Source: Nevskiaceae bacterium | GTDB lineage: Bacteria; Pseudomonadota; Gammaproteobacteria; Nevskiales; Nevskiaceae | Direction: 5' to 3' | NCBI GenBank assembly: GCA_965216845.1 | Contig: OZ244200.1 | Span: forward strand, 3,027,368-3,091,367 | DNA: 64,000 nt | Shown: piece by piece, positions 5,201 through 64,000 of the stretch | Numbering within the stretch: the first letter of the stretch is position 1 | How the letters are laid out: the number at the start of each line of letters is the position of its first letter | Program-made: the position numbers and the translations under genes | Notes under the pieces: generated by a model | Database searches by the model: none | Seen by the model: the letters and a program-made list of their open reading frames with translations, nothing else | What the model was told of the DNA's origin: nothing

Positions 5201-5203
5201 TCC

Positions 5204-5947: not shown

Positions 5948-6666
5948 ACGTTCGCACCGTCACCGAACGTATTCGGCTCTACCTCAGTACCGAGCACCCT
6001 TGCGGTTATCTCAGCAACCGCATGGCACGCAGCCTGTTCATCGACCCTGACCTGCCGCTGGACCCTGGCCGCTATCAGGCGCTGCTGGAACAGGGATTCC
6101 GCCGCGGCGGCGATCACGTTTATCGGCCGCGCTGCGGCAATTGCGTGGCTTGCAGGCCGGCACGTATCCCGGTGGCGGATCATCGCTGCAATCGCAGCCA
6201 GCGCCGTTGCCTGGCGAGCAACCAGGATTTGCAACTGCGGATTGTGCATCACAGCACGCAGGAACAATTCGAGCTGTATCAGCGCTATCTGCGCGCGCGA
6301 CACCAAAACGCCGGCATGAACCCGGATGACAAATCCGGCTTTCACAGCTTTCTGCATTGCCGCTGGGGGCAGGCTGAATTCTGGGAGTTTCGGGAGCAAG
6401 ACACCCTGCTTGCGGTTGCGGTGGTGGACCGCCTGCCCGATGCCTTGTCTGCGGTCTATACCTTTTTTGATCCGCAACAAAGCGCACGCAGCTTGGGAAC
6501 TTACGCGGTTTTGCGGCAGTTGGAACAAGCCCGGCAACAGTGCCTGCGCCATGTCTATCTGGGTTACTGGGTGGCGGGCAGCCGCAAGATGGATTACAAG
6601 CGCCGTTTTCGCCCCCTGGAAGTGCTGGGGCCGCGCGGATGGGAAGCCCTGGACGGCGCAGCCTGA
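5944..6666 (+). CDS. bpt: Arginyl/aspartate-glutamate leucyl-tRNA--protein transferase (Bpt/Ate family)
   Basis: 240 aa with HPCGYLSNRMARSLFIDP...GFRRGGDHVYRPRCGNCVACRPARIPV and YLGYWV...KMDYK. There is an ATGA overlap with aat. Confidence 0.9.
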   Translation: MNVRTVTERIRLYLSTEHPCGYLSNRMARSLFIDPDLPLDPGRYQALLEQGFRRGGDHVYRPRCGNCVACRPARIPVADHRCNRSQRRCLASNQDLQLRIVHHSTQEQFELYQRYLRARHQNAGMNPDDKSGFHSFLHCRWGQAEFWEFREQDTLLAVAVVDRLPDALSAVYTFFDPQQSARSLGTYAVLRQLEQARQQCLRHVYLGYWVAGSRKMDYKRRFRPLEVLGPRGWEALDGAA

Positions 6667-6720
6667 TCAAGTCACGATCAGCGCGGATATAATGCGCGCC
6701 CTTTTGGCAAGCCCCTACAA

Positions 6721-6939
6721 ATGGCGAAAGAAGACCATATTGAAATGCTCGGCACGGTTGTTGAAACCCTGCCCAACACCACGTTTCGCGTCAAACTCGA
6801 AAACGGCCATCTTGTCACGGCCCATATTTCGGGCCGCATGCGCAAGCACTACATCCGCATTCTGACCGGCGACAAGGTCACCGTTCAGCTCACACCCTAT
6901 GACTTGACCAAGGGCCGGATTACGTTTCGGGACAAGTAA
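6721..6939 (+). CDS. infA: Translation initiation factor IF-1
   Basis: 72 aa ([70 protein letters not shown]), near-universal IF-1 sequence. Confidence 0.98.
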
Positions 6940-7036
6940 GCGCAGTCGGCGGGCACGACCCGCCCTACAGCTGCTTCTTTCAAGTGGCACACGCTGCGAC
7001 GAGACGATGCGGAATCCTGACCGATAGGCGTGTTGC

Positions 7037-49006: not shown

Positions 49007-49336
49007 AGCAGAACCACGCCAACGACAACGTTGGCCGGGCCACGAATTGGAAAGCCGCTACCCGGTATCGCTGACCGTTGCCAGCGTGGCCCTCAACATC
49101 ACCCTGTGATCCAGCGTGATACGCTGAGTCTGGACCTGCCGGGCTACTGCGGCACGCTGCCGGATCTGTGGTCCCACGCGGTTTGCCGGCAGACGGCATC
49201 GCCGAACCGGAGGCGCGCGAGCAGCCCCGATGTGACCCGCCTGGGACGCTTGCGCTCGGATTGGCGAAGCGGTATCTTCGTGCGTAGTGCATCCCCGCAC
49301 ACCACACGAACATCGACCCGCTTCAGGAGGCTCACG

Positions 49337-50251
49337 ATGGCACTCGCAAATCGAAAGATCGGCTACGACGAGGTAGAACCGCGCGACCTGCGCTTCAATT
49401 TGGGCAAGGATCAGGTTCCGCGCTACTGGATCAACGGCGACCCCTGGACGACTCACTTCTTCAATTCCATCATGGCAGCCGTTCCCGACGGCGAGCGCTG
49501 GGTCATGCAATGTGTGCGGCGCAGCCTCACTCAGCTCAAGGACGACACGGTACGCAAGGCCGGCATCGCCTTCATCAAGCAGGAGCATTACCACGCGCGT
49601 GAGCATGACGACATGAATCACGCACTGATCCAGCAAGGCGTGCCGCTGGATGTGGTGGAACGCAACTTCAAGGTGATCCGTTCGGTGCTGGAAAAGCTCA
49701 CGCCGCCGAGCATGCACCTGTCGATGATGGCCTCCTTCGAACACTTCACCGCCACCATGTCAGCGGTATTCATCGATCATCCGGAAATGCTCGACGACTC
49801 CGATCCGCGCATTGCGGCAATGCTGTTCTGGCACTTCGTCGAGGAGACCGAGCACAAGTCGGTGACCTTTGACGTGTTCCAGGACGCGGTTGGCAGCTAC
49901 CCACAGCGCGTGCTGGGCATGCTGATCGCAAGTACGATGTTTCTGCCCATGGTTCAGGGCCACATGCTGTACCTGGCCTGGAAAGACGGGCAACTGCGCA
50001 ACTGGCGCTCGTTGCTGCGCTGTCTGGATACCCAGTTCGGTCGCCAGGGAGTATTCACGCGCCTGCTGCTGGGCCACTACTTCCCGTACTACAGCCCCAA
50101 GTTCCATCCTTGGGACGCGGACAATCGCTCCAAGATCAGCGCCTGGAAAAAGGCTTTCGCCGCCACCGGCGACACATTCGCCGCCTATGCCCAGTTCCGC
50201 AAGGCAGCCGGCCTGCCCGCAAGATCAGATCTGGTTGCGCAGGCCGCCTAG
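49337..50251 (+). CDS. Predicted metal-dependent hydrolase (COG3687/PF10118-like)
   Basis: 304 aa from the ATG at 49337, 6 nt after AGGAGG. Motifs are FFNSIMAAVPDGERW...FIKQEHYHAREH...FWHFVEETEHKSV. Confidence 0.7.
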   Translation: MALANRKIGYDEVEPRDLRFNLGKDQVPRYWINGDPWTTHFFNSIMAAVPDGERWVMQCVRRSLTQLKDDTVRKAGIAFIKQEHYHAREHDDMNHALIQQGVPLDVVERNFKVIRSVLEKLTPPSMHLSMMASFEHFTATMSAVFIDHPEMLDDSDPRIAAMLFWHFVEETEHKSVTFDVFQDAVGSYPQRVLGMLIASTMFLPMVQGHMLYLAWKDGQLRNWRSLLRCLDTQFGRQGVFTRLLLGHYFPYYSPKFHPWDADNRSKISAWKKAFAATGDTFAAYAQFRKAAGLPARSDLVAQAA

Positions 50252-50316
50252 CTGCGGTGGTACCGTCGGTTTCCGCCCGCATCCGGCGGTCGGCAACCGG
50301 CGAACGGGGCGTAACA

Positions 50317-50368
50317 CCGCATGGTCCGGCAAGCGGAAAGGATCGTCGGACCATGCGGCGTTGTTTTT
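50317..50368 (+). terminator. Rho-independent terminator after the metal hydrolase gene
   Basis: It has a 12-bp perfect stem ccgcatggtccg (50317-50328)/cggaccatgcgg (50347-50358) with an 18-nt loop. The stem is followed by cgTTGTTTTT (to 50368). Confidence 0.7.
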
Positions 50369-50589
50369 GGAAACTGGCACGCCCAGACAAGTCCGGTGCG
50401 CTCCATGAACACCGGCGGCGCGCACCAAGCCTGATCGCCTGGGCTGACTCACCGCTGGAGCGATCCAGCAGTTGCTGTGCGGCGCTTGACGCGGACATCC
50501 GCACATTGGCCGAAACGACATGATAATGCCCATCATGTAAAATCGATTGGTCAATCAAGTATTGCCGCACGGAGTAATCTCACTCAATC

Positions 50590-51402
50590 ATGGCCGAGAA
50601 AGCCACTTACCGCATGGCGGAACTGGTCAGTCGCAGTGGCGCCAGCCGCGAGACGGTGCGTTACTACATTCGCGAAGGCCTGCTGCCGCCGCCGCACCGC
50701 ACCGCCCGGAACATGGCGTGGTATTCCGACCGCCACCTCGAGTTGATCAAACTCATCCGCGTGCTCCAGGACGAACAGTTCCTGCCGCTCAAGGCAATCA
50801 AATCGCTGCTCAACAAGGATCAGGAATACCAGTTCACCCCGCGACAACGGGAGATTTTCGCCAACATCCTCACTGAAATGGCTTCGCAGTCTCGTCGCGC
50901 CCTGCCGCGGCCGCCCGGCTCCCGGCTGGCCAGCGCGCTGGGCTTGAGCGATGAAGACTACGAGCACATGGCGAGCATGGGGCTCATTCGCACCGGCAAT
51001 GACCCACTGACACGCGACGAAGAGGATCTGCTCCGTCAGTTTGCGGTCCTGCGGCAAAGTGGCATGACCAAGGAACGTGGCTTCTTACCGGAACACCTGG
51101 AAATCGTACAGGCGGCCGCTGACATCCTGTTTGATCAGGAGTTGCGCATGTTTCAGACGCTGCTCGACAACCTGCGCGACGATGAAATTCCCGGCATCAT
51201 GGAGCGCGTCATCCCCGCCATCAACCGAATCTTCGGATTGTTGCACGCACGCAAACTACGCGCGTTCGTCGCCCGCTATGCACCCCAGGAAAGAAACGGT
51301 GGGTCCGCAACTGCTGACACCACCGATGCAACGGAAAAACCGTCGCCACCCGCAGCCTCCAGCCGCCGGCGACGTCGCTCGTCCGCAACCCGCGATAGCT
51401 AG
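50590..51402 (+). CDS. MerR-family transcriptional regulator with a long C-terminal domain
   Basis: 270 aa. The N-terminal HTH reads YRMAELVSRSGASRETVRYYIREGLLPPP...YSDRHLELIKLIRVLQDEQFLPLKAIK. Confidence 0.9.
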   Translation: MAEKATYRMAELVSRSGASRETVRYYIREGLLPPPHRTARNMAWYSDRHLELIKLIRVLQDEQFLPLKAIKSLLNKDQEYQFTPRQREIFANILTEMASQSRRALPRPPGSRLASALGLSDEDYEHMASMGLIRTGNDPLTRDEEDLLRQFAVLRQSGMTKERGFLPEHLEIVQAAADILFDQELRMFQTLLDNLRDDEIPGIMERVIPAINRIFGLLHARKLRAFVARYAPQERNGGSATADTTDATEKPSPPAASSRRRRRSSATRDS

Positions 51403-51981
51403 ACTCACGATAGCTGGTTAAGGGACGCCATCCGGCCAAAACCCATCATCCCGACCGCCGGTGATGACGCGCTACCTGCCGGAACGAGCGTTGTGCCACC
51501 CTTCGGTCATGGCAAAACTCACAGCCTTCGGGGTGCTGTGCCTGAGAGCAGTGGCCGCCGGCGCCAGCCCCAGGGTGATTTCCTCGCCCATTGAAAAAAC
51601 GTCCCGTTTCCACCACAGACCAGCCAGCAGATCAGGTCGCTGCTGGAAGCAGCACTGGCAGCGGCCTTACCCGCCTGCGGCGTACCGAAGCGCCAATGAC
51701 TTACCGGAATAGATTGAAGCGCAAACCACTGTGATGAGCGCCTTGGTTACGGTCTGTTCCAGTTTTCGGTCCGGCCAACACAGAACAGATCCGTGACCCA
51801 TGAGCAAGCGGCACCGCTTGCCCGGCCCCGGCGTTTTCAAACACCGGAGCCGAAGTCTGCATCCGTCGATTCAGCGGGGCAAGCAGCCATCATGTATATC
51901 AATGATGGCCATCCTGCCCCATTGGATGATGCCCCAGCCGAGGCGAGCTACCGTCGCCGCAAACAAAATTCTTGCGGGGTA

Positions 51982-53046
51982 TCAGTTCAAGGCTGCGATG
52001 ACTTGAACACCGCTGCCGGTGGCGGCATAGAGTTTGCCCTTCCAGGGCAGCAGCACGGTGAAGATCTCGTCCAGCGTCTCACCTTCGGGTCTGTCGGCAA
52101 ATTCAAGAACTGAAGGCGCCCTGCCCGCTTCAAGCACGACCACCTTCTCGCTTCTTCCGGCCGCCGCCACCCGCCCGTTTCCGAGTTGGGCGAGGTCGAA
52201 CAAGGGTTTTTCGACGCCCGTCGATACCGGCTCCCATTGCGGGTTGCACAGATCCGCAGTTCGGAAGGCGTTACCCCGCATACCGACCACCAGCAGACCG
52301 CGTTCCCCTTCCGGAATCGCTGAGTACAGCGACCCATCGTACGGCACATCCAGAATCACCCAGTTCCGCCCATCCACGGAAATGGCCACCAATCCCATCT
52401 CGCCAACCAGCACGAAGGTGCCATCGTCTGCTTGCAGCAGATCATACATATGGAATCCGTTATCGCTGAGGGTGGTGTCGGCAAGGTCCGCCCAGGTCTT
52501 GCCGCCGTCATCGGTAACTTTGAACAACCCGAAGGCACCAACGGCGTAGCCGGTCTTTGCATCCGTGAACAGGACATCCAGAAAAGGATTGCCACCGTTG
52601 CCTCCGAAAGCCTGCACCGACCAGCTCTGTCCACCGTCACCCGTATACAGGATGCTGGCATCGTGGCCGACCGCCCAGCCGTGTTGATCGTCGGCGAAAG
52701 TCACGGCGTTGAGCATCGCATTCACCGGAGAGGGCACCTGCGTCCATTCCTCACCGTCCTGCGAAGTGATGATGATGCCGCGCTCGCCAACGGCGACGAG
52801 CTTATCTCCGGCGGCGGCCACGTCGTTGAGCTGCGCCTGGACGGCGAGCGGCTCGATTGCGGCCGGCGTCGGTTGGCTCGCTGCCACCGCGTTGGCTGCG
52901 GTGCCTGCTGTCGCCAATGCGGCTAGCACCCACAGCAGTTTTCCCATCAGATTGTTCATATGCTTGGTCACGGAACTTTGCTCGCTCATAATGCTTATCG
53001 TCGGTCCAGGGGCCTGGACCAGGCCCCGCAATTCCATCAAATCCAT
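51982..53046 (-). CDS. Ycf48-like BNR/Asp-box beta-propeller protein (periplasmic)
   Basis: It has repeated Asp-box motifs (TSQDGEEWTQV, TGDGGQSWSV, VTDDGGKTWADL). The ORF ATG at 53046 overlaps the RND stop (TGATG). However, the signal peptide (MNNLMGKLLWVLAALATAGTAANA) begins at codon 30, about 52959, so the start is uncertain. Confidence 0.8.
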   Translation of the reverse strand: MDLMELRGLVQAPGPTISIMSEQSSVTKHMNNLMGKLLWVLAALATAGTAANAVAASQPTPAAIEPLAVQAQLNDVAAAGDKLVAVGERGIIITSQDGEEWTQVPSPVNAMLNAVTFADDQHGWAVGHDASILYTGDGGQSWSVQAFGGNGGNPFLDVLFTDAKTGYAVGAFGLFKVTDDGGKTWADLADTTLSDNGFHMYDLLQADDGTFVLVGEMGLVAISVDGRNWVILDVPYDGSLYSAIPEGERGLLVVGMRGNAFRTADLCNPQWEPVSTGVEKPLFDLAQLGNGRVAAAGRSEKVVVLEAGRAPSVLEFADRPEGETLDEIFTVLLPWKGKLYAATGSGVQVIAALN

Positions 53047-55676
53047 CAGCTCGATGCCGGTGTCGGCTCTGCCTCGGGCGCGTCCGTATCGGCGTCGTTC
53101 GGGGCATTCGGATTCGGCCGCAACAGCAAGGCCGCAAACGCTGGCAGGATGAAGATGGCGGCAACCGCGTTGGCCAGAATCATCACGTTCAGCAGAATGC
53201 CCATATCCACCTGGAATCGAAGACCGGAGAACAGCCAGGTGGCCACGCTGGCCGCCAGTGCCAGTGCGGTGAACACCACGGCCTTGCCGGTCTGACTGAG
53301 TGCGTCGGCGTAGGCCTGACGCATCGACATGCCCTTCTCCTTCACGTTTTCCTCCAGCACCGAATAGATATAGATGCCGTAGTCAACCGCGATGCCGGCC
53401 GAGAAAGCCACCGTGGCGATGTTGGTCACCTTCAAGCCGATCTCCAGGTACACCATCACCGTGTAGATGAACACCGACGACACGATGATCAGCGGCGTGA
53501 GAATGCAGATCACACTGGCAATGTTGCGGAAGGACACCCAGATACTGAGGCCGATGGCCACATACAACCACAGCAGCACGGTGAGTTCGGTATCTTCCAC
53601 CACATCATTGGCTGCCGCCATCACGCCGACATTGCCCGTCGCCAGTCTGAAGGTCACCGGTGAATCCTCGGGCAGCTCGTCGACGAAAGCTTCAAAGGAG
53701 TCGATGACGGTGTCGATGGTCTTGGCCTTGTGATCCGCCGTGAACACGAACAGCGGCATCGCGCTGCAGTCGGTGTTGAGCAGGCCGGTGGAACTCGGGA
53801 ACGGCTGCACCGTCACCACCAGCGCACCGGACTCGCGCGGCAGCACGTTCCATTTGGGATGGTTCTCGTTATAGGCGTTGTAAACCACTTTTTGCATCTT
53901 GGGCAGCGACAATGTCGACTGTACGCCGGGGGTGTTCTCCATGCGCCAGGCCAGCTGGTCGATCACACCGACGACGGAATGGTCGATGCAGGCATCAGCC
54001 TGGGTCTCGGCGATGATCTTCAGCACGTCCACACCGATGGAGAAGTTGTTGACGATGGCGTCCGTATCAACGTTGTAGGTCGAGTCGGTGTGCAATTCCG
54101 GCGTGCCGGGATGCAGCTCGCCGATGGCCAGGTTGCGGTTGATGTGGTGAGAAACGCCCCAGGCCACCCCGGTGCCCAGCAGCACGAGCACCGCCGTTCG
54201 CTTGAGGATACCGGCCGAGGCCAGGTGCCAGACCGGATCCAGCATACGATCTCGGCGATGCTGGTGACGGCGAAACTTCTCCGGGTTGCGGATCGGCGCA
54301 TAGGACAGCAAGCAGGGCAACAGAAACTTCTTGCAAACCACCACCGCAATCAGACCGAAGCAGGCGTTGATCGCCATCTCCTGGACAATGCCGATGGGAA
54401 TCAGCAGCAGGGTGCCGAAGCCGATGAAATTCGTGATCAGTGCGGTGATGCCGGGAATGACCAGCCGCTTGTAGGTTCCGACTGCGGCGTCGTAGCTGTT
54501 CAGCCCTTTGTTGGCGGTCTCCAGCAACCAGAAATTGGTGATCTGGATGCCGTGCGAAGTACTGATGGCCACAACCAGAAACGGCACCAGGATGGCGAAC
54601 GGGTCGAGTCCGTAACCGAACAGATGCAGCATGCCCAGCTCCCAGACCACCGCCAGCAGTCCGCAGGACAACGGCAGCAAGGCCACCAGCCAGGATCCGG
54701 TGTACATCGCCAGCACGATCCAGACCATCAGAATTGATATGGCAAAAAAGATGACAACTTCGCCCGATTTTTCCGCGATATCGCCGACGATCTGCACGAA
54801 GCCGATGTTGTGGATGTTGATGGACGGGTTGTAGTCGGGGTTGTCGACCTCGTTCACATCGAAGTCGCTGCCGGAAAGCGTGGCCGCGGTGAACGCGCCG
54901 TTCTCATCCTTGTAGCGAAAGTCCACATCGGAAAAGCGGAACAGCAGGCTGGTCGGATCCGTGTATGAAATGTGTGCCACATCGCCGGCCTTGAGCGGCG
55001 GAAAGTCCTCCTTGAGCCGGAATTCCCACATCTTCGGACTGATGAAGCGATGCCGGATCTGCTCCAGCCCGTCCTCGGCCTTGAAGTAGTCCAGCTTTTC
55101 ACCACTGACCGGGTCACGTTCGATCAGCTCGCCGAAAATCATCGCGCCCCGCTCGTCGTTGGACACCAACCGACCGATCACGTCCGCCTTTTCCACGTTG
55201 TTGCGAACGGTCTGCAACATCTCCGGCGATGGCGTGAAGTCCGCCGGCACCACGTTGCCGCCACGGAAGCCGCCCTCGACCACCTCCAGATAACGCACGT
55301 CCGGCGTCATGATCGAGCTGACGCGCGACCGGTCCATGCCGGGAAGAAAGAACATCGCGTCGCTGGCCTGACGCAGCGTGGCCATGAACGACGGCTCGTA
55401 GATGTTCCCGTTACCGGGCTTCTGCATGACCGCCAACAGCACGGTATTGGCGCCACCGAACTCACGCTGGTATTCCTTGAACACCTCAATATAGGGATGG
55501 CCCTGCGGAAGCTGCTTCTCGAAACCTGCATCCAGCTTGAGCTGGGCAGCGTGCCAGCCGAGAAAGAGCGTGGTCAGAAACAGCACGATCAGCAATCGCG
55601 CACGCTTGTGAAAGATGATCGGGAGGGTGGTGTCCACATACCATTTCGCGAACCCGCCTTTTAGCTCACCGTGCAT
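53046..55676 (-). CDS. RND-superfamily transporter, MMPL/HpnN-like
   Basis: 876 aa with two 6-TM bundles each preceded by a large periplasmic loop. GGAG lies 8 nt upstream of the ATG. Confidence 0.9.
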   Translation of the reverse strand: MHGELKGGFAKWYVDTTLPIIFHKRARLLIVLFLTTLFLGWHAAQLKLDAGFEKQLPQGHPYIEVFKEYQREFGGANTVLLAVMQKPGNGNIYEPSFMATLRQASDAMFFLPGMDRSRVSSIMTPDVRYLEVVEGGFRGGNVVPADFTPSPEMLQTVRNNVEKADVIGRLVSNDERGAMIFGELIERDPVSGEKLDYFKAEDGLEQIRHRFISPKMWEFRLKEDFPPLKAGDVAHISYTDPTSLLFRFSDVDFRYKDENGAFTAATLSGSDFDVNEVDNPDYNPSINIHNIGFVQIVGDIAEKSGEVVIFFAISILMVWIVLAMYTGSWLVALLPLSCGLLAVVWELGMLHLFGYGLDPFAILVPFLVVAISTSHGIQITNFWLLETANKGLNSYDAAVGTYKRLVIPGITALITNFIGFGTLLLIPIGIVQEMAINACFGLIAVVVCKKFLLPCLLSYAPIRNPEKFRRHQHRRDRMLDPVWHLASAGILKRTAVLVLLGTGVAWGVSHHINRNLAIGELHPGTPELHTDSTYNVDTDAIVNNFSIGVDVLKIIAETQADACIDHSVVGVIDQLAWRMENTPGVQSTLSLPKMQKVVYNAYNENHPKWNVLPRESGALVVTVQPFPSSTGLLNTDCSAMPLFVFTADHKAKTIDTVIDSFEAFVDELPEDSPVTFRLATGNVGVMAAANDVVEDTELTVLLWLYVAIGLSIWVSFRNIASVICILTPLIIVSSVFIYTVMVYLEIGLKVTNIATVAFSAGIAVDYGIYIYSVLEENVKEKGMSMRQAYADALSQTGKAVVFTALALAASVATWLFSGLRFQVDMGILLNVMILANAVAAIFILPAFAALLLRPNPNAPNDADTDAPEAEPTPASS

Positions 55677-55734
55677 TCATGAATCTCCGCAAGTATTAAG
55701 AATTGTTGCTGCTTTCCGACCGTTGCCGCATCGG

Positions 55735-55785
55735 CAGAAGAAAAAGCTTTCGTCCACGGGTCCGGCCATGGCCGGACCCGTGGAC
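55735..55785 (-). terminator. 34-bp perfect palindrome plus T-run on the minus strand; terminator/attenuator between the lipoprotein gene and the RND gene
   Basis: 55752-55785 (gtccacgggtccggccatggccggacccgtggac) equals its own reverse complement. On the minus strand it is followed by gaaagcTTTTTcTTcT. Confidence 0.65.
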
Positions 55786-55819
55786 CGTATCCAAGGTTTG
55801 ATGCCACTGTCTGCGGCAA

Positions 55820-56581
55820 TCAGCCGTCGCTGACACAGATCTCGAACAGCCGCAAGCCATTGAGCACTTGCAGGCCGCCGCCGAAATCCAGACGCACTTC
55901 ATCAAACTCCTTGGAAAACTGCGCGCCAACGGTCCGTGGTCCGGGGTTGGCTGGCGTAGTCAGGACCGAAGGTAGATCGAGCAGGCTCAACACGGCGAAC
56001 ACCTGGCCATTTGGACTGGCCGACGGATCGGTCGACTCCTGTTCCTGCCCATCCAGAAGGGTCGTGACGGTGATTTCCTGGTTCAGTCCGATGGTCAGCG
56101 GTATGGCGTCCTCTTCGCCGGCCACGAAAACCGCGACCCGGCTGTCGGGCGGGTGCGTGCGTGCCGAATCGAATACCGAGAGGAAGGCCGTGCCGGTCAC
56201 CGCAACGGGCACGTTGAGTGTGGCAAAGTTGGTCGGGTCGTCGTCAACCGCAGCCTCGGCGTCCATCACCGTACACCCCACGCACACACCACTGAGGCCC
56301 GTCCTCACCAGGCCTCGAGGCGCACGCAGCGGTTCGAAGGCGTTGCCGGGCGCGCATTGCTGGGGCGCGCTGGCAAAACCAGCGCCGCCGCCGTTGGGTG
56401 TGTCCGGGTCGGAGCAGCCAACCGCCAGCGTCGCCGCCAGCAAACCGGCCGCACCGGCCATTCTCCAGGCTTTCGCCGGCCGTGCTGCGTGACCTGCATG
56501 GATGCCCGCATGACGCATGTTTTGTTCAGCGCTGGATGGCGCGCTGCGCCATGGATTCAGTTTCTCGATGTTGTCATTCAT
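55820..56581 (-). CDS. Hypothetical lipoprotein, 4 conserved Cys (copy A), no family recognised
   Basis: 253-aa ORF with an ATG 3 nt after GGGGGGAGAG and 15 nt after the DUF1302 stop. The lipobox is LAVGC|SDP at about residue 56. Alternative starts are M22 (56518) and M41 (56461). It is a paralog of 61179-61874. Confidence 0.6.
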   Translation of the reverse strand: MNDNIEKLNPWRSAPSSAEQNMRHAGIHAGHAARPAKAWRMAGAAGLLAATLAVGCSDPDTPNGGGAGFASAPQQCAPGNAFEPLRAPRGLVRTGLSGVCVGCTVMDAEAAVDDDPTNFATLNVPVAVTGTAFLSVFDSARTHPPDSRVAVFVAGEEDAIPLTIGLNQEITVTTLLDGQEQESTDPSASPNGQVFAVLSLLDLPSVLTTPANPGPRTVGAQFSKEFDEVRLDFGGGLQVLNGLRLFEICVSDG

Positions 56582-56596
56582 GATCTCTCCCCCCGG

Positions 56597-59173
56597 TCAG
56601 AACTGGTACTTGACGTAGAAGCCCAGGTTGTCCCGGTCTGCCGTCAGATTGTTTTCGCCGGCGCCGGCAATCATGTTGTAGACCACGTTGAAGGTCAGCG
56701 CCTTTTCATAGCGGAACTCCAGGATCGAGGTCAGCTGATAACGGCCTTCGATGAAGTTGAACAGCGGAGCCGGCGAATTGCCATAGACGTCGTGCTGCCA
56801 GAGCAGCAGCGGCTGGATGCTGATGGACGGCAGCACCGACTCGTAGAGGATGCGCGAAACCACGCGGTAGCCGGTCGAAAAGCTATCGGCAAAGGCATCT
56901 CTCGGCGCCTGGAAGGGGTTGAACCGGATGCCGTCCGGGCCAATGGTGCAGGCGATGTTGGTGGAGCAAGCCAGTTGCGAGCCGTCCGCACCGCTGCCGT
57001 CGGCGCCAGCCGAGGCATGGGTATAGGCGGTCAGCGGACCTTCCAGTTGCAACTCGTTGAAGGACGGCATGTTCAGCACGTGCGTCGCCGCCAGTTCGTA
57101 GACCATCAACACCTGGTCGGCGCCGATCAGCTTGGACGGCCAGTCGGACATGCTGTACAGGCGGGTTGCACCCAGGGTGTACTGCGCAACGTCGAACTCC
57201 TCCCAGCCGCGGATGTGGCTGTTGGGCGCCGGATCGTCACCGAGTGTGCCACCGCGATACGGTACCAGGAAGCTGGGGAACGAGCGCGCCGTGGACGGTA
57301 CGCCGGCGAGCAGCAGGAAGCTGGTGTCATTGAAATAGGGAACGCCGTCGCCGTCGGTGGCGTCGCTGCCTTCGTAGACGAAATACTGGCCGGTGACGTT
57401 CTGGCCATTGCCACCCGGCGTGCCTTCGCTGTCCTCGGCGAAGCCCACCGCCGCCACGGTGCCGTCGCAGCCATCGTCGGGGCCGTTACAGTGTCCGAGC
57501 GTTGGTTGCAGCGCGGCAAACAGCACATCCACCAGCGCCACTTGCAGCGGCTGATCGGGCCGGTAGGCGACCTCACCCTGGAAGGAGTAGTCGCCGTAAG
57601 TGGTATTGAAGCTGAGGCCGAACATCTTCAGATCTTCAGGGTAGGTGAGCTGGATCTCGGCCGTGTCCAGCGGAATGATCTCGCTCTCCGGTCGGCCCGG
57701 CTGCGGAAGCAGCAGATTCGCCACCCCGGTGACGGCATCCAGCGGCGTGCCGTCGACCCCCAGAGTATTGGCCACCTCCGGTCGCGCGGTCACCAGCCCC
57801 GCCAGGTCGGTGGCCGCCTGCAGAACGCCTCGCGGATAGCTGCTGTTCACCACCAGGTGCAGATTGGGGCACAGGGTCAGAATGTCAAAGGTGTTGTTGG
57901 CATTGCGACCCTGGGTATTGCCTGCCGCGCGCTGACAGCTCGCGTTGGTCGCGAAAGCATCCACATACGGCAGCTTGGAGTGGTAGTTCATGAAATAGAA
58001 GCCCAGCTCGGTGCCGTAGTTGAGCCAGTCGGCGTAGTACTTCAGGCTGAAGCCGTACTCGCCGCCGTTGCGGGCCTCGTCATCGCGTCTGCGGCCGACC
58101 GACAGCGTGGTCTTCGACACCAGACCAAACGGATTGGCGATGGCGGTGCCGAGTTGATTGAGATCGTCCGGCGCCTGTCCGAAGCTGGCGTTGAGACGAT
58201 CAGAGCCCAGGTTGTCGGTCCCTGCATCGATGAACGAGAAAAAGCTTCCGGGGGGCGGGATCTCCACCGGCTGCCAATTGAACACGTAGTGGGCCTGCAG
58301 ACTGACGCCACCGCCCAGGTAGGTGGAAATGTTGGCCATATTGACCGGGACAAACAGATCCTCCAGCAGCGCGTTGCCGAGCCGGAAGATGTTGTTGGCG
58401 TTCACCGGATTGGCCTGGGTCAGGCTGTTGATGACCGCGGCGGTGCTTTCGCCCCAGTTCACCACCTGTTTGCCGACGCGAAGGGTGATGTCCTGATCAA
58501 CCACCGGCAGCGTAAAGGGCACGGTCAGATGCAGGTCGAGCAGATCATAGAACAGGTATTCGTCCGCGATGCGGTCGCCACGCTTCTGGCGCACCACGGC
58601 GCCGCGACCGAGCACCTCGTCATAATAGCGGTTGCCGAAAGGGTCGCCGCGCGTGAGCACCTCGTCGAAGTTCTCCGGGGTGACCTTGTTCGGGTGGTAT
58701 TCGTCGAAATCGTAGTTGACCGGGTCGTAGACACCCCGACCGCGCACGAACAGCTCCCACTCGCCGTACTCCCACTGATCGAAGAAACGGAACTTGACGT
58801 CCGTGTTCAGAACGATCGGCGCCTGAACGATATCGCCCTTGTCGTAGTTGAGGTTGCCGTTGTCAAAATTCATCGACGACTGACCCGGTGCGTCGCGCAG
58901 GCGCGCGGCCGGCCAGTCCTGATCGCGGATAACACCCTGGCAGAGCTGAAAGACGCCGGTGCAGACGTCAGGATTGAGGTTGGATTTGCCAACCAGGTAG
59001 TCCGCGCGGTCATGCAGACGCCACTGTGCCCCCGCAGTAAAGCTGTTGTTCAGGATCGCCGAAATGTCCTGCCCGAACACGCCAAAGTCCAACTCCCGCG
59101 CCGAAGCGCTGGTACTCACCGCAAGTGTGAGTGCCGCTGCGGCGGCGACTCTCCCCGTCCTCTTCATCGTCAT
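56597..59173 (-). CDS. DUF1302 family outer-membrane beta-barrel protein (copy A)
   Basis: 858 aa with a signal peptide (MTMKRTGRVAAAAALTLAVSTSASA). It has the RVGKQVVNWGEST motif I associate with DUF1302 and a C-terminal beta-signal ending ...GFYVKYQF. GGAGAGGAG lies upstream. Confidence 0.85.
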   Translation of the reverse strand: MTMKRTGRVAAAAALTLAVSTSASARELDFGVFGQDISAILNNSFTAGAQWRLHDRADYLVGKSNLNPDVCTGVFQLCQGVIRDQDWPAARLRDAPGQSSMNFDNGNLNYDKGDIVQAPIVLNTDVKFRFFDQWEYGEWELFVRGRGVYDPVNYDFDEYHPNKVTPENFDEVLTRGDPFGNRYYDEVLGRGAVVRQKRGDRIADEYLFYDLLDLHLTVPFTLPVVDQDITLRVGKQVVNWGESTAAVINSLTQANPVNANNIFRLGNALLEDLFVPVNMANISTYLGGGVSLQAHYVFNWQPVEIPPPGSFFSFIDAGTDNLGSDRLNASFGQAPDDLNQLGTAIANPFGLVSKTTLSVGRRRDDEARNGGEYGFSLKYYADWLNYGTELGFYFMNYHSKLPYVDAFATNASCQRAAGNTQGRNANNTFDILTLCPNLHLVVNSSYPRGVLQAATDLAGLVTARPEVANTLGVDGTPLDAVTGVANLLLPQPGRPESEIIPLDTAEIQLTYPEDLKMFGLSFNTTYGDYSFQGEVAYRPDQPLQVALVDVLFAALQPTLGHCNGPDDGCDGTVAAVGFAEDSEGTPGGNGQNVTGQYFVYEGSDATDGDGVPYFNDTSFLLLAGVPSTARSFPSFLVPYRGGTLGDDPAPNSHIRGWEEFDVAQYTLGATRLYSMSDWPSKLIGADQVLMVYELAATHVLNMPSFNELQLEGPLTAYTHASAGADGSGADGSQLACSTNIACTIGPDGIRFNPFQAPRDAFADSFSTGYRVVSRILYESVLPSISIQPLLLWQHDVYGNSPAPLFNFIEGRYQLTSILEFRYEKALTFNVVYNMIAGAGENNLTADRDNLGFYVKYQF

Positions 59174-59291
59174 CGTTGTGTCTCCTCTCCTCGAACGCCC
59201 GACTGATTATCGATCTGGTGTGCGCTGTGTCTGCCGCGCAATCAGGTAAACCAAGCTTCGGGATCCTCATCCTGGAAGCCTCGATCATTGA

Positions 59292-59355
59292 CTGCCCGCC
59301 CGCGGCGGCATCTCGCGGGCGGGCAGGTTGTGTAATGGAGCGGGAGTCTCCCGCT
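59292..59355. other. Two strong stem-loops between DUF1329 and DUF1302 copy A
   Basis: The first is a 13-bp perfect stem ctgcccgcccgcg (59292-59304)/cgcgggcgggcag (59314-59326). The second is a 7-bp stem agcggga/tcccgct (59339-59355). A T-run follows only on the plus strand. Confidence 0.5.
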
Positions 59356-59359
59356 TTGT

Positions 59360-60721
59360 TTATTTCGCCGCGCGGCGCTGAATGGCCGAAGGCTCGAAAT
59401 AGCCATCCGGGAAATCCAGGGTGCCGTCAGGCGACTGATCCTCGTTCTGCATCGCGGTGACGAAGTAGCGTCCGCTGTTGAAGTGGTAAATCACTTCGGG
59501 GATCGTCGTGCTCGCCATTACGTTGGAACCGTAGAGCAGGTGTCCTTCCTGAAGCTGCATCAGCTGACCCTGGTGATCGTAGTTGTCACGCGCAACGATG
59601 TTCCAGGTGTCCTCGTCGAGGTAGAAACGAATCTTGCCGAAGGTGTGACGCAGGTCGGGCCGGTTTTCCGCTTCCACCACCCAGACGCGGTGCAGCTCAT
59701 AACGCGGCAGCTCCGGATTGACGTGGCGAGGGCGCGCGATATCGGCGTATTTGATCTTGTTGCCGGCGATGCGATAGGAGTTGTAGGGAATGTACAGTTC
59801 CTTGCGTCCGACCAACTTCCATGTATAGCGCTCGAGCACGCCGTTGAACATGTCAACCTGATCGTAGAACTGGTGACCGTCGGTGCCCTCATAGGGGTTG
59901 TCACAGCAAACCGCCGGCGCGCGCCGGATGCGCTTGAGCGCCGGCGAGTACAGCCATGCCGCGCGCCCCTCCGGTCCGGTGCCCGCCTTTTCGTGCGCGA
60001 GGATGAAGGTTCCGGCCAGCCGCGGCGGATTGACGATCTCCGAAGCGTATTTGATCGAAATCACGCCCGGCTTGAGTTCCAGCGCTGGTTCGATCTCGAT
60101 GTTGTTGTAGTAGAACCTGACGTCCTCGACGATCTTGGTCAGCGAGTATTCGCCATCCAGCTGCACGATCATCTGGTTGTTGAAGCGCCGGAAGGTAGAG
60201 CCGCGGAACTTGGTCTTGTGATTCCAGATGGGTTCAGCGCCGGACTGCGGAATCGGGAAAGGGTAACCGAGAAAGGCGTTGCGCGGCTTGTCCACGGTGT
60301 CGAGTACCGCGGTGGAGGCGTTCTTGATCGATCCGTCGAGGATCTCCTTGGGCATGTTGGCAATGCGGTGGCTCGGATAGACATTCATCCGGTAAGAGTC
60401 CGGATAACGCTTGAGCAGCTCCTTGTGCCCCTCGGTGAGCTTGTCGGCGTACTTGCCCACGTTCTCCCCGGTGATCGCGAACAGCGGCTCTTCGGCGTCC
60501 AGGTCCGGATAGCTCGGCCAGAAACCCTTGAGCGGACCCTCTTTCGGCCGCGGCGCCCATTCCGGAATCGAGCCATCTTCATTGCCGGCGTGGATCGCGC
60601 CGACCGGCGTCAGCTCCTTGCCGAGTTTCGCGACCTCCTCCGGTGGCGCCTTGGCGGCAACGGGCAGTACCACTGCAGCAAGTAACGCTGCACACAGCAC
60701 GGATCTGTTTTGAATTTGCAC
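59360..60721 (-). CDS. DUF1329 family (LolA-like fold) periplasmic protein
   Basis: 453 aa from the GTG at 60721, 6 nt after AAGGAG, giving a signal peptide VQIQNRSVLCAALLAAVVLPVAAKA. The track ATG at 60781 would add 20 non-signal residues and lies inside the promoter candidate. The family assignment is from recollection of the DUF1329 size and pattern and its pairing with DUF1302. Confidence 0.8.
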   Translation of the reverse strand: MQIQNRSVLCAALLAAVVLPVAAKAPPEEVAKLGKELTPVGAIHAGNEDGSIPEWAPRPKEGPLKGFWPSYPDLDAEEPLFAITGENVGKYADKLTEGHKELLKRYPDSYRMNVYPSHRIANMPKEILDGSIKNASTAVLDTVDKPRNAFLGYPFPIPQSGAEPIWNHKTKFRGSTFRRFNNQMIVQLDGEYSLTKIVEDVRFYYNNIEIEPALELKPGVISIKYASEIVNPPRLAGTFILAHEKAGTGPEGRAAWLYSPALKRIRRAPAVCCDNPYEGTDGHQFYDQVDMFNGVLERYTWKLVGRKELYIPYNSYRIAGNKIKYADIARPRHVNPELPRYELHRVWVVEAENRPDLRHTFGKIRFYLDEDTWNIVARDNYDHQGQLMQLQEGHLLYGSNVMASTTIPEVIYHFNSGRYFVTAMQNEDQSPDGTLDFPDGYFEPSAIQRRAAK

Positions 60722-60749
60722 CTTCTGCTCCTTATCTGGGTGGTTCTCG

Positions 60750-60798
60750 ATTCTATTGTCTTCAACCGATCTACCAAACAATTGGTAGGTGACGTCAA
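60750..60798 (-). promoter_or_regulatory. MerR-type promoter candidate: TTGACG-N19-TAGATC with a 7-4-7 dyad; it overlaps an alternative TTGGTA-N16-TAGAAT
   Basis: The minus strand reads TTGACGtcacCTACCAAttgtTTGGTAGATC (plus-strand coordinates 60798-60768). The dyad CTACCAA-ttgt-TTGGTAG occupies 60771-60788. TAGAAT lies at 60755-60750. Confidence 0.45.
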
Positions 60799-61178
60799 GC
60801 TAACACGCTGCTACGGGCGGCGCAAGGATTGACTGACTGGCCAACCGTTGAAACACGAGCCGATAGGCAGGTGGGAAAAGCTAGCAGATCAGCGCCAATT
60901 CGGCACCCATTGCCGCCACAGAATCCGACCTGGAGCTGGCCAGAGCCCCGCTGCAGAGAAGCTCGAACGAGGCGCTGGGTATTTGCCGAAACCGGCATCG
61001 AATCCAGCGCCAGAAGAAATTTCGTTCCGCTACGCCGCCGCGACACTTGTCATCCGCACGGCCCGGCGCCGCGCCGGCTTTGCCTGCCGGGGCGCACGCA
61101 CTGCTGCCGGCGACCATCGCGCAGATCGTCAGGAACCAGCGCGATGTCTTGTTTTTCGTACTCGCGCGCTTCAGCGCG

Positions 61179-61874
61179 CTACGCGTCGATGCAAAGGCTG
61201 AACACGCGCAAGCTGTTGAGCAGGTTCACCGCACCGCCGAAATCCAGACGTACCTCGTCGAACGCCTGCTCCGTCACCAGCCCGATGAAACGGGGTTCAG
61301 CCTGTGGCGTACCGGGTAACAGAATCGGAGCTTCGAGAATCTGTAGCGCCAGCGCCGGGCTGTCGTTGGTAGGGCTTGTGGAATCCTGTTCCACGCCGTT
61401 GAGAAACGTGGTGATTGTAGTCTGTTGGCCGACCGCGACCGTCAGCGGGATGGCGGCCTGGTCATCGCCGCCCACCAGGAAGCCGACGCGTCTGCCCGGC
61501 GAGGTGACGCCGGCGCTGTCGAACACCGAGACAAAGGTACTGCCGGCAAGTCCAGCTCCGACCTGCAGGGTTGCGAAACTTTCCGGGTCGGCGTCGACCA
61601 CCGCTTCGGCATCTACCACTCTGCAGGCGACGCAGCCGCCGGAGATGCCGGAATCGAGTACCGCCCGCGGCGCCTGCAGCGGCGCGAAGGCATTGCCGGG
61701 TGCGCAGGCTTCTGGCGCACTCATGACCGAGCCGGCGCCGTGGGTGGAATCGGCCGGATCGCTGCAGGCGCTCAGGCTGGCGCCGGCAAGCACTGCGGCC
61801 AAGGTGTAGCCGATCACCCTGCGCGCGCTTTTGCGCGCGGGTTTCATCACGCTCAAGGGAGTGGAGACGTTCAT
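61179..61874 (-). CDS. Hypothetical lipoprotein, 4 conserved Cys (copy B)
   Basis: 231 aa with lipobox LSAC|SDP. Its start is 3 nt after the DUF1302 copy B stop. It aligns over its full mature length with copy A; by eye roughly half the residues are identical, including CAPGNAF, C-x-x-C, DAEA-VD-DP, FDEVRLDFGG and the C-terminal Cys. Confidence 0.6.
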   Translation of the reverse strand: MNVSTPLSVMKPARKSARRVIGYTLAAVLAGASLSACSDPADSTHGAGSVMSAPEACAPGNAFAPLQAPRAVLDSGISGGCVACRVVDAEAVVDADPESFATLQVGAGLAGSTFVSVFDSAGVTSPGRRVGFLVGGDDQAAIPLTVAVGQQTTITTFLNGVEQDSTSPTNDSPALALQILEAPILLPGTPQAEPRFIGLVTEQAFDEVRLDFGGAVNLLNSLRVFSLCIDA

Positions 61875-61877
61875 GGC

Positions 61878-64000
61878 TTAGAATTGGTATTTGAGGTAGA
61901 AGCCGAGATTGTCGCGGTCGGCCAGCAGGTTGTTGGTGCCGGCGCCGGCGTAGAGGTTGTAGACCACATTGAAGCTGAGCGCCTTTTCATAGCGGAACTC
62001 CAGGATCGAGGTCAGCGAGTAACGACCTTCGATGAAATTGAACAGCGGAGCCGGCGAATTGCCATAGACGTCGTGCTGCCAGAGCAGCAGCGGCGCGATG
62101 CTGATGGACGGCAGCACCGACTCGTAGAGGATTCGCGCGACCACGCGGTAGCCGGTCGAAAAACCATGCGCAAACGCATCCCGCGGTGCCTGGAAGGGGT
62201 TGAATCGGATGCCGTCCGGGCCGATGGTGCAGGCCACATTGGTCGAGCAAGCCAGTTGCGAGCCGTCCGCACCGCTGCCTTCGGCGCCAGCCGAGGCATG
62301 AGTATAGGCGGTCAGTGGACCTTCCAGTTGCAACTCGTTGAAGGACGGCATGTTCAGCACGTGCGTCGCCGCCAGCTCGTAGGCCATCAGCACCTGGTCG
62401 GCGCCGATCAGCTTGGACGGCCAGTCGGACACGCTGTACAGGCGGGTTGCACCCAGGGTGTACTGCATGACGTCGAACTCCTCCCAGCCGCGGACGCGGC
62501 TGTTGGGCGCCGGGTCGTCGCCCAGGCTGCCGCCGCGATAAGGGACGATGAAGTTCGGAAACGAGCGCGCCGAGCTGGGAACGCCGGCCAGCAACAGGAA
62601 GCTGGTATCGTCGAAGTACACGTTGCCATCGGCATCGACGGCGTCGCTGCGGTCGTAGATGAAGAACTGCCCGGTGGTGTTCTGCCCGTTGCCGCCGGGC
62701 GTGCCGGTGCTGTCCAGCCCGAAGGATACGGCAGCCGCCGTTCCGAAACAGCCGTCGCCTGGGTCGTTGCAATGCCCCAGCGTGGGCGCCATGGCGGCGA
62801 AGCCCAGATCCACCAGCGACACCTGCAGCGGCAGGTCGGGCCGATAGGCAAGCTCACCCTGGAAGGAGTAGTCGCCATAGGTGGTGTTGAAGCTCAGGCC
62901 GAACATCTTGAGATCTTCGGGGTAGGTCAGCTGCGCGTCCGCGGTGTCGAAGGGAATGATCTCGCTGAGCGGCCTGCCCGGTTGAAACACCAGAATGTTG
63001 GCCAGGCCGGTGACCACGTCCAGCGGGGTGCCGTCGATGCCGATATCCGCCGCCAATTCGGGGCGGGCGGCTATGATTTGCACCGCGTCCACCAACGCCT
63101 GGGTGACGCCGGTGGGCTCCTCGACCAGAGCCAGGTTCGGGCACAGAGTCAGGATCTCGAAGGTATTGCGCGCATCGCGACCCTCCGGATTGCCCGCAGC
63201 ACGCATGCAGCTGGCATTCGAGGCGTAGATGTCGACGTAGGGTAGCTTGGAGTGGTAGTTCGAGAAATAGAAACCCAGCTCGGTGCCGTAGTTCAGCCAG
63301 TCTGCGTAGTACTTGAGGCTGATGCCGTACTCGCCGCCGTCGCGCGCCCGCTCATCCGGCCTGCGGCCGATGGACAGTGTGGTGCGTGACACCAGCCCCA
63401 GGGGGTTGGCCAGCCGGGTCCCCAACTGTCCGAAATCATCCGGCGCCTGGCCAAAACCGCCGTTGAGGCGATCCTCACCCAGGTTGTTGACTCCGGCGTC
63501 GAGGAAGGAATAGAAAGTGCCGGGTGCGGGGATGTCCACCGGCTGCCACTCGAAGGCGTAATGGGCCTGCAGGCTGACACCGCCGCCCAGGTAGGTGGAC
63601 AGGTTGGCCATGTTGACCGGGACGAACAAATCCTCCAGCAGCGCGTTACCGAGCCGGAAAACGTTGTTGGCGTTCACCGGATTGGCCTGAGACAGACTGT
63701 TGATGATCGCCACGGTGCTTTCGCCCCAGTTCACCACCTGTTTGCCGACGCGAAGCACGACGTCCTGATCCACCACCGGCAGAGTGAAGGGCACGGTCAG
63801 ATGCAGGTCGAGCAGATCGTAGAACAGGTATTCGTCCGCGATGTCGTCGGCGCGCTTCTCGCGCACCACGGCGCCCTTGAGCAGGGTGGCGCCAAAATAG
63901 CGGTTGGCGAACGGGTCGCCGCGGATCAGCACCGATTCGAAGTTCTCCGGAGTGACCTTGTTCGGGTGAAATTCGTCGAAATCATAGTTGAGCGGATCGT
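61878..64000 (-). CDS. DUF1302 family outer-membrane beta-barrel protein (copy B), 5' end beyond the window
   Basis: The frame stays open to the window edge (...DPLNYDFDEFHPNKVTPENFESVLIRGDPF...), collinear with copy A. It ends ...GFYLKYQF. Confidence 0.85.
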   Translation of the reverse strand, partial: DPLNYDFDEFHPNKVTPENFESVLIRGDPFANRYFGATLLKGAVVREKRADDIADEYLFYDLLDLHLTVPFTLPVVDQDVVLRVGKQVVNWGESTVAIINSLSQANPVNANNVFRLGNALLEDLFVPVNMANLSTYLGGGVSLQAHYAFEWQPVDIPAPGTFYSFLDAGVNNLGEDRLNGGFGQAPDDFGQLGTRLANPLGLVSRTTLSIGRRPDERARDGGEYGISLKYYADWLNYGTELGFYFSNYHSKLPYVDIYASNASCMRAAGNPEGRDARNTFEILTLCPNLALVEEPTGVTQALVDAVQIIAARPELAADIGIDGTPLDVVTGLANILVFQPGRPLSEIIPFDTADAQLTYPEDLKMFGLSFNTTYGDYSFQGELAYRPDLPLQVSLVDLGFAAMAPTLGHCNDPGDGCFGTAAAVSFGLDSTGTPGGNGQNTTGQFFIYDRSDAVDADGNVYFDDTSFLLLAGVPSSARSFPNFIVPYRGGSLGDDPAPNSRVRGWEEFDVMQYTLGATRLYSVSDWPSKLIGADQVLMAYELAATHVLNMPSFNELQLEGPLTAYTHASAGAEGSGADGSQLACSTNVACTIGPDGIRFNPFQAPRDAFAHGFSTGYRVVARILYESVLPSISIAPLLLWQHDVYGNSPAPLFNFIEGRYSLTSILEFRYEKALSFNVVYNLYAGAGTNNLLADRDNLGFYLKYQF

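Follow-up and report, generated by a model that had tools for sequence, protein, structure and literature searches.

The window (the whole 64,000-nucleotide stretch of DNA analysed here) carries a gene cluster with the minus-strand order barrel B, lipoB, a spacer of ~460 nt, DUF1329, barrel A, lipoA, a hairpin, an RND transporter, and a Ycf48/BNR-like protein (Table 1). All four families of AmeABCD-type cassettes are found in this one cluster: PF06980 twice, PF07044, PF14870, and PF03176/TIGR00921. The two lipoprotein sequences, named lipoA and lipoB here, are identical to hypothetical proteins from a Panacagrimonas sp. MAG (Nevskiales, Gammaproteobacteria).

Table 1. Features of the cluster in the window, listed in minus-strand order.
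Feature	Position	Strand	Evidence and remarks
Barrel B, DUF1302 outer-membrane beta-barrel	61878..64000	-	PF06980, E 2.8e-105; directly upstream of lipoB
lipoB, B-type barrel-linked lipoprotein precursor	61179..61874	-	ORF, 231 aa
lipoB lipobox Cys37 codon	61764-61766	-	
lipoB jelly-roll core (predicted), ~aa 63-231	61182-61688	-	
DUF1329/LolA-like periplasmic protein	59360..60781	-	PF07044, E 2.4e-116; LolA_like
Barrel A, DUF1302 outer-membrane beta-barrel, 858 aa	56597..59173	-	PF06980, E 7.8e-137; directly upstream of lipoA
lipoA, A-type barrel-linked lipoprotein precursor	55820..56581	-	ORF, 253 aa with ATG 56581
lipoA lipobox Cys56 codon	56414-56416	-	
lipoA jelly-roll core (predicted), ~aa 82-253	55823-56338	-	
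Perfect 15-bp hairpin with T-rich tail past the lipoA stop	55738..55786	-	sequence, folding
HAE3/MMPL-type RND inner-membrane transporter	53046..55676	-	PF03176 (MMPL), 56.8 bits (cut-off 20.5)
Ycf48/BNR-like beta-propeller protein	51982..53046	-	PF14870 (PSII_BNR), E 1.6e-15; start overlaps the RND stop
MerR-family regulator, convergent with the cassette	50590..51402	+	PF13411, E 3.4e-18

Lipoprotein genes and the surrounding cassette

The 5' end of the barrel B gene lies beyond the window edge, and its reading frame is open up to the window end. Both barrels exceed the Pfam model by ~300 aa and contain Cys-rich inserts. The DUF1329 gene likely starts at GTG 60721, ahead of which AAGGAG is found. 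The RND transporter matched the TIGR00921 model (HAE3) with an E-value of 2e-42, below the cut-off of that model, and the MerR regulator occupies the same position in two related loci (L014 and L015).

The hairpin behind lipoA had a folding energy of -35.7 kcal/mol (z = -6.7), with none of 200 shuffled sequences being equally stable, and is probably the terminator or mRNA end of a DUF1329-barrel A-lipoA unit. It was missed by a scan for promoter and terminator consensus sequences, in which the counts did not exceed the shuffle expectation. No RNA family was matched in an Rfam scan of positions 49000-64000. The ~460-nt spacer between lipoB and DUF1329 showed no conservation across the related loci, and the search for a small ORF within it returned a 65-aa ORF called in L015 without a counterpart in the window.

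An earlier note, made from the sequence alone, had placed the lipoprotein starts 3-15 nt past the barrel stops, and the measured distances agree: 15 nt between the barrel A stop (56597) and the lipoA start (56581), including the Shine-Dalgarno-like run GGGGGGAGAG, and 3 nt between the barrel B stop (61878) and the lipoB start (61874). The lipoboxes that it had recognized in both copies, LAVGC followed by SDP in lipoA (Cys56) and LSAC followed by SDP in lipoB (Cys37), satisfy the PROSITE PS51257-type rule, as do those of 17 of the 18 family members, and the lipobox cysteine is invariant in all 18 aligned sequences. Both proteins thus have the features of lipoprotein-type precursors and are presumably lipidated. 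Directly behind the lipid cysteine an acidic tether (C-SDPDD-S/P-T/N-HG) is conserved, which persists in distant lipoproteins as SDPDDSTHG, SDPTHG, or DDSAHG. According to the established Lol sorting rules the residue at position +2 decides E. coli-type inner-membrane retention. This residue was read as Ser or Gly, and an E. coli-type inner-membrane retention signal is therefore absent.

The unusually long pre-lipobox region that had been pointed out for lipoA is real provided that ATG 56581 is used as the start: it then comprises 55 residues, similar to the 51 aa of the orthologue in MAG197 (L003), with 33 aa in the Solimonas orthologue. This N-terminal extension is poorly conserved and is missing in Solimonas, and it may be an artifact of annotation. 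Orthologues of lipoA were identified in Solimonas sp. SE-A11 (L002), MAG197 (L003), Banduia/Algiphilus sp. W345 (L014), and a metagenome contig (L015), and in every one of them the start codon seems to be the first ATG past the barrel stop, so that the n-region varies in length while there seems to be one common start.

Sequence family and predicted fold

Neither lipoA nor lipoB matched a curated family in Pfam or NCBIfam at an E-value of 0.1 or lower, and in a profile search against the sequences of the PDB the best match had an E-value of 0.31 and was an unrelated SGBP. A word-indexed search returned ~18 close relatives, all of 216-253 aa and all unnamed; the lipoprotein clade comprises ~20 clusters among 5.8 billion proteins and is confined to Nevskiales-like bacteria. 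In the 18-sequence alignment of the family C57, C81, C84, and C228 (lipoB numbering) are invariant, and the same holds for the two blocks that had been noticed in both copies, VxDAEAxVDxDP and FDEVRLDFGG.

A HMMER search of 1.84 billion representative proteins with the family profile identified 725 proteins at an E-value of 1e-3 or lower, including 64 at 1e-30 or lower. Most of these are proteins of 1000-4900 aa in which the stretch beginning at the CxxC motif and ending at the C-terminus (profile positions ~72-228) is present in 3-13 tandem copies; single repeats score at most 77 bits, and whole giant proteins reach E-values down to 1e-103. Named examples are the 'gliding motility-associated C-terminal domain-containing protein' of Tamlana crocina (WP_167916902) and a 'gliding motility protein' of Flavobacterium. 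Other giants bear DUF4347, SprB, DUF11/DUF7507, bacterial TSP3, or Por_Secre_tail domains, and several module-bearing giants matched no Pfam or NCBIfam family whatsoever. Single copies of the module form the C-terminal part of TSP3-repeat lipoproteins (Steroidobacter, L004), and a TSP3 protein of Kangiella (L005) also has one.

In a 49-sequence alignment that included repeats of the giant proteins the CxxC motif was at least 90% conserved. The remaining two cysteines are conserved within the lipoprotein branch, but only part of the repeats contain both of them, and hence the four invariant cysteines of the earlier note hold for the 18-member lipoprotein alignment, whereas the wider module keeps the CxxC pair only. 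Its statement that the proteins could not be assigned to any family stands in so far as Pfam, NCBIfam, and PDB sequences gave no match, but the family is not isolated: judged from these sequence matches, the ~150-aa core, which starts with the CxxC motif and extends to the C-terminus, is a widespread module without a curated model. The repeated occurrence of the module in giants that are secreted or surface-located and carry T9SS/gliding C-terminal domains implies that it has a binding or structural function outside the cytoplasm. The resemblance to SprB-like repeats of Flavobacterial gliding proteins and T9SS type-B cargo is one of true sequence homology of the core. The SprB-like giants differ in being 1000-4900 aa long, non-lipoprotein, exported by the T9SS, and unlinked to DUF1302, whereas a C-APGNAF segment at the N-terminus and a lipid anchor are additions of the lipoprotein clade.

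Structure prediction with AlphaFold2 using the 18-sequence family alignment alone resulted in a model with a pLDDT of 48.5, which was discarded. With the 49-sequence alignment, lipoB residues 38-231 were modeled as an all-beta protein (pLDDT 83.9, pTM 0.80) containing only two helices of 4-5 residues each. The best match of this model in a Foldseek search of the PDB was the CBM32 jelly roll 2v72 (E-value 5e-5, probability 1.0). A total of 17 matches had E-values of 1e-3 or lower and were mostly CBM32, CBM11, and CBM29 domains with a probability of 1.0; the TM-scores were 0.48-0.63 when normalized to the target and ~0.41-0.45 when normalized to the query, at a sequence identity of ~10%. Further matches were the galactose-binding-domain-like jelly rolls of APC10, SUN domains, and IFT25. 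As modeled, the lipoprotein core is a galactose-binding-domain-like jelly roll, which is an assignment to a fold class at moderate similarity and not to a family. The fold class also mediates protein-protein contacts, as in APC10, SUN, and IFT25, and ligand binding is therefore not assured.

Like CBM32 and F5/8 type C domains (e.g., the CBM32 of Clostridium perfringens NanJ, PDB 2v72), the core is an all-beta jelly roll of similar size, and both CBM32 and this module are used in tandem as accessory parts of large extracellular proteins. The TM-scores in this comparison were only 0.41-0.57. In contrast to CBM32, the CxxC hairpin and the predicted terminal disulfide are specific to the lipoprotein family, and neither lipoprotein matched PF00754 (F5_F8_type_C) in Pfam (E-value 0.1 or lower). 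In the lipoB model the CxxC motif is located at the turn of a beta-hairpin and the other two cysteines near the N- and C-termini of the domain, suggesting the disulfides C81-C84 (a staple of the CxxC hairpin) and C57-C228 (a clamp between the N- and C-termini). For carbohydrate or Ca2+ binding, the conserved D-x-D-x-x-N/F-A motif is no more than a candidate.

Membership in two lipoprotein families was considered and rejected. For LptE (PF04390) there was no Pfam match, the model is all-beta and not of an alpha/beta fold, and the partner barrel is DUF1302 and not LptD. For the SusD-like proteins (PF07980 and related models) there was again no Pfam match, the model is not all-helical, and the adjacent barrel is not a TonB-dependent SusC.

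Conservation of the barrel-lipoprotein pair

The genomic context analysis covered 10 lipoprotein genes: two in the window, two in MAG197 (L001 and L003), one in Solimonas sp. SE-A11 (L002), two in Banduia/Algiphilus sp. W345 (L014), two on the metagenome contig (L015), and the distant member L013 (40% identical). The barrel-linked clade was located directly behind a DUF1302 gene in all 10 contexts, i.e., down to a lipoprotein identity of 40%, at distances of 3-15 nt in nine of them and 88 nt in the tenth, and always within an AmeABCD-like cassette of DUF1302, DUF1329, Ycf48-BNR, and HAE3-RND genes. The overall order of the loci was (DUF1329)-DUF1302-lipoB-DUF1329-DUF1302-lipoA-RND-BNR with MerR alongside, the first barrel in L015 having no DUF1329 gene of its own. 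The A and B types each retain their own barrel across genera, and duplication always involved the barrel and the lipoprotein as a pair. Directly upstream in the related loci are genes for a metal-hydrolase, an SDR, an FMO/Baeyer-Villiger-type monooxygenase, and an esterase.

The tight and conserved placement behind DUF1302 argues for a functional barrel-lipoprotein pair. For the barrel-linked clade, the claim that these lipoproteins always follow a DUF1302 barrel was thus upheld, but it does not extend to the distant single-domain relatives, none of which (including those of Steroidobacter, L004, and Kangiella, L005) was near a DUF1302 gene, and many DUF1302 barrels are without a lipoprotein. 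The lipoprotein domain was absent within 6 kb of six Nevskiales DUF1302 barrels (826-877 aa, four loci), one of which shares 64-70% identity with the barrels linked to a lipoprotein, and Nevskiales cassettes such as L018 are without the lipoprotein. Barrel length, inserts, and cysteine counts yielded no clean discriminator between the two groups. Length was uncorrelated with the presence of the lipoprotein, the lipoprotein-free barrels also being 826-877 aa long, and only 11 group-specific alignment columns and a 13-residue insert, partly shared, distinguished linked from lipoprotein-free barrels. Since related barrels occur without it, the lipoprotein is a lineage-specific accessory and not a core subunit or a core structural requirement; it is dispensable for the barrel family and evidently can be lost.

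Putative role and alternative explanations

Cassettes of DUF1302, DUF1329, BNR, and RND genes are widespread, including in Pseudomonas aeruginosa, and their mutants have clear fitness phenotypes. To our knowledge neither a mechanism nor a solved structure is available for them. Examples of the AmeABCD type are AmeABCD of Castellaniella defragrans, PP_0765/0766 together with PP_2018/2019 of Pseudomonas putida, and Sama_1588-1591 of Shewanella. Deletion of the cassette in Castellaniella decreased monoterpene tolerance and increased Nile Red accumulation (PMC6394551), and mutation of DUF1302/DUF1329 and of BNR/RND lowered the fitness of P. putida on two fatty esters, Tween 20 and butyl stearate (10.1101/2020.07.04.188060). 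Cofitness of the four genes was reported for several bacteria (10.1101/072470). DUF1302 is predicted to form an 18-strand AlgE/Occ-like barrel for which no structure has been solved, and a DUF1302-DUF1329 complex is predicted by AlphaFold-Multimer (PMC13499233). The cassettes described so far have four parts, with DUF1329 directly behind DUF1302 (PMC6394551; four genes also according to 10.1101/072470).

The cluster in the window resembles these cassettes in that all four families are clustered, a regulator is adjacent, and catabolic genes for hydrophobic substrates are present in the related loci, and it is likely a transport cluster handling hydrocarbons or esters. It differs by the extra lipoprotein gene for each barrel, the duplicated barrel-lipoprotein module, and barrels of ~850 aa instead of ~600 aa. 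The most fitting description of the system is a variant of the AmeABCD-type cassette with five components, combined with a domain family new to Pfam and NCBIfam.

The reading that we favor, with belief and doubt in about equal measure, is that of a disulfide-stabilized, ligand-binding accessory lipoprotein that is co-produced with its own barrel and docked on it, where contact, binding, and lipidation are each presumed. Each gene would give rise to a small outer-membrane lipoprotein consisting of an acidic tether followed by one CBM32-like jelly-roll beta-sandwich, which the two predicted disulfides would stabilize. It would be produced together with, and in stoichiometric amounts to, the DUF1302 barrel whose gene ends 3-15 nt upstream, and dock on this barrel as an accessory, ligand-binding subunit, where it may capture, present, or release hydrophobic or amphiphilic cargo. 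The lipoprotein would thereby form the fifth part of a trans-envelope system of the AmeABCD type that handles hydrophobic or amphiphilic compounds, with the A and B types each serving their own barrel. The substrate class is likewise presumed, and the lipoprotein may face either side of the outer membrane.

As a special case of docking, the lipoprotein might be flipped outward and serve as a lid or substrate catcher whose jelly roll covers the barrel at its extracellular mouth, captures poorly soluble substrates, and passes them to the channel, similar to SusD or BtuG. Every multi-copy relative of the module is a secreted or surface protein with T9SS/gliding C-terminal domains, the acidic tether behind the lipid cysteine is conserved even in distant lipoproteins, and the Cys-rich inserts of the barrels, which extend ~300 aa beyond the Pfam model, could be extracellular loops. 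Gammaproteobacterial lipoproteins, however, by default face the periplasm (a Lol-dependent topology), no export pathway for surface lipoproteins was identified within the window, and the TSP3-repeat relatives could be periplasmic. We regard surface exposure as rather unlikely. A more specific version, which we consider quite improbable, would have the lipoprotein at the cell surface as a lid on an AlgE-like 18-strand DUF1302 barrel for hydrophobic esters or hydrocarbons that operates without TonB, with the A and B lids setting the substrate range; the conserved acidic tether behind the lipid cysteine (DDxxHG) would perhaps direct export of the lid to the surface. Should this be true, surface lipoprotein and barrel would together make up an uptake machine of a new class outside the Bacteroidota, with a SusCD-like mode of catch and hand-over.

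The same default topology is in favor of a periplasm-facing protein in the inner leaflet of the outer membrane that, similar to LptE with LptD, is needed to fold, plug, or gate the barrel or that bridges it to the DUF1329/LolA-like carrier. The gene spacing, which suggests translational coupling, and the first L015 barrel, which is without its own DUF1329 gene, are compatible with such a function. On the other hand, sister barrels with 64-70% identity exist without the lipoprotein, the all-beta jelly roll is unlike LptE and matched no LptE model in Pfam, and the related modules are typically extracellular, and this explanation is unlikely as well. The earlier note had compared the gene arrangement to LptD/LptE and SusC/SusD. 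A small lipoprotein gene genetically coupled to a barrel gene is indeed shared with these pairs, with BtuB/BtuG, and with RcsF and OmpA/C/F, but the likeness is confined to gene arrangement: the fold is different, the partner barrel is DUF1302 and neither LptD nor TonB-dependent, and the lipoprotein is dispensable in sister lineages.

A further possibility is that the lipoprotein is a fast-evolving specificity determinant under diversifying selection and that the low identity between lipoA and lipoB reflects adaptive divergence of an exposed subunit. The measured identities of 45% for the lipoproteins (222 aa, E-value 4e-61) and 81% for the barrels (687 aa) are close to the earlier estimates by eye of about half and about 80%, respectively. 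Gene-wide dN and dS were estimated by the Nei-Gojobori method, both between the paralogs and between orthologs. Between lipoA and lipoB dN was 0.49 and dS ~1.6 (saturated), compared to a dN of 0.13 and a dS of 0.57 between the two barrels, and the paralog-to-ortholog ratio of dN was ~3-5 for the lipoproteins and ~1.5-1.8 for the barrels. These values, as well as the position of the most variable alignment segment in low-confidence loops of the model (lipoB aa 168-195), speak in favor of diversifying selection, and a burst of functional divergence after the duplication is compatible with the data. The gene-wide dN/dS of lipoprotein ortholog pairs, however, was 0.20-0.25 (barrels 0.11-0.17; RND pumps 0.15-0.17), which identifies the lipoprotein gene as functional and under constraint; as estimated from these sequences, selection on it is purifying and only somewhat relaxed. 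The difference in paralog dS (~1.6 vs. 0.57) further indicates that the low identity of the lipoproteins is partly due to deeper synonymous divergence and not purely to fast protein evolution, and it is partly explained by an older split of the lipoproteins or, on the side of the barrels, by gene conversion or a later duplication. The earlier argument that low paralog identity marks a specificity-determining or surface-exposed subunit was thus not sustained, and we consider diversifying selection improbable.

That the lipoprotein acts independently, as an adhesin or binding protein for a surface, polymer, or droplet that is merely transcribed together with the barrel and forms no complex with it, would be consistent with the use of the module by giants that resemble adhesins and by TSP3 lipoproteins that have no relation to DUF1302, but is very unlikely given the strict adjacency in all 10 contexts (nine with gaps of 3-15 nt), the duplication always as a pair, and the retention of their own barrels by the A and B types across genera.

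The practical importance of the lipoproteins is moderate, as the clade is small, taxonomically narrow, and dispensable. The module without a Pfam or NCBIfam model, which can now be modeled and annotated, makes up much of several giant gliding and surface proteins of Flavobacteria. For the DUF1302 cassettes themselves, a dedicated lipoprotein with a putative binding module that was duplicated together with its barrel into two types provides a handle on the cargo of the barrel and on the direction of transport.

Barrel paralogues and the spacer before barrel A

The two DUF1302 barrel paralogues (56597-59173 and 61878-64000) differ by a dS of only 0.57, which is similar to the values for orthologue pairs from different genera (0.46-0.79) and far below that of the adjoining lipoprotein paralogues (about 1.6). 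Such a disparity could mean that the barrels have undergone gene conversion with each other, or that the two gene pairs differ in age. Long DUF1302 barrel genes were also found as tandem pairs in Algiphilus aromaticivorans (L019, 3270-8601) and Solimonas sp. K1W22B-7 (L020, 3074-8553), with no DUF1329, RND, BNR, or lipoprotein gene within 6 kb of either pair. Since these pairs stand alone, the DUF1302 barrels of the Nevskiales are heavily expanded and sometimes lie outside the four-gene cassette.

The spacer preceding barrel A contains GC-rich inverted repeats, for example CCTGCCCGCCCGCG...CGCGGGCGGGCAG and GCGGGAG-ACT-CCCGC, which lack a T-run and may represent an mRNA processing or stability element, or an attenuator, inside the operon.

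Features of the window and of related loci
Feature	Location	Strand	Position or context
406-aa ORF	49031-50251	+	Adjoins the MerR regulator gene
Post-Cys tether, lipoprotein A	56390-56413		First residues following the lipid Cys
Post-Cys tether, lipoprotein B	61740-61763		First residues following the lipid Cys
186-nt spacer	59174-59359	minus	Between DUF1329 stop and barrel A start
Conserved block, L014 (Banduia/Algiphilus sp. W345)	1-5889		Directly upstream of the barrel/lipoprotein cassette
Conserved block, L015 (metagenome contig)	1-7297		Directly upstream of the barrel/lipoprotein cassette
Conserved block, L017 (further related locus)	1-4422		Directly upstream of the barrel/lipoprotein cassette

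The lipoprotein tether and the CxxC module

In both window lipoproteins, the lipobox Cys is immediately followed by the conserved tether SDPDD-S/P-T/N-HG. The conserved region was also noted in P0020 and P0114 from the profile search, and a D-D/S-x-x-H-G core was found again even in distant TSP3-repeat lipoproteins. The tether may act in sorting or bind a metal.

The CxxC jelly-roll module of about 150 aa, for which there is no Pfam or NCBIfam model, occurs in 3-13 tandem copies in giant gliding-motility or T9SS proteins of Flavobacteria and other Bacteroidota (P0019-P0167; loci L008-L011), e.g., P0021 from Tamlana crocina (WP_167916902). Some proteins of 955-1150 aa that consist largely of this module matched zero families.

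A single 1121-aa ORF with one module copy was observed in Kangiella shandongensis (L005, 1680-5045). Its product has a signal peptide, TSP3 repeats, the module, many further TSP3 repeats, and a hydrophobic stretch of the GlyGly-CTERM-like type, together with another segment resembling a signal peptide and, at the C-terminus, an OmpA-like barrel region. Either a fusion of two genes or an unusual architecture may account for this ORF.

Catabolic genes neighboring the cassette

Based on its sequence and its location beside the MerR gene, the product of the 406-aa ORF putatively resembles Metal_hydrol (PF10118), genes for which flank the cassette in L014-L018. The conserved upstream block, before the equivalent of which the window stops, encodes a metal-dependent hydrolase, an SDR, an FMO/Baeyer-Villiger-type monooxygenase, a second hydrolase, another SDR, and an alpha/beta-hydrolase esterase. 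This gene content directly upstream of the cassette in relatives suggests that a ketone/ester pathway, resembling subterminal alkane oxidation, is coupled to the transporter.
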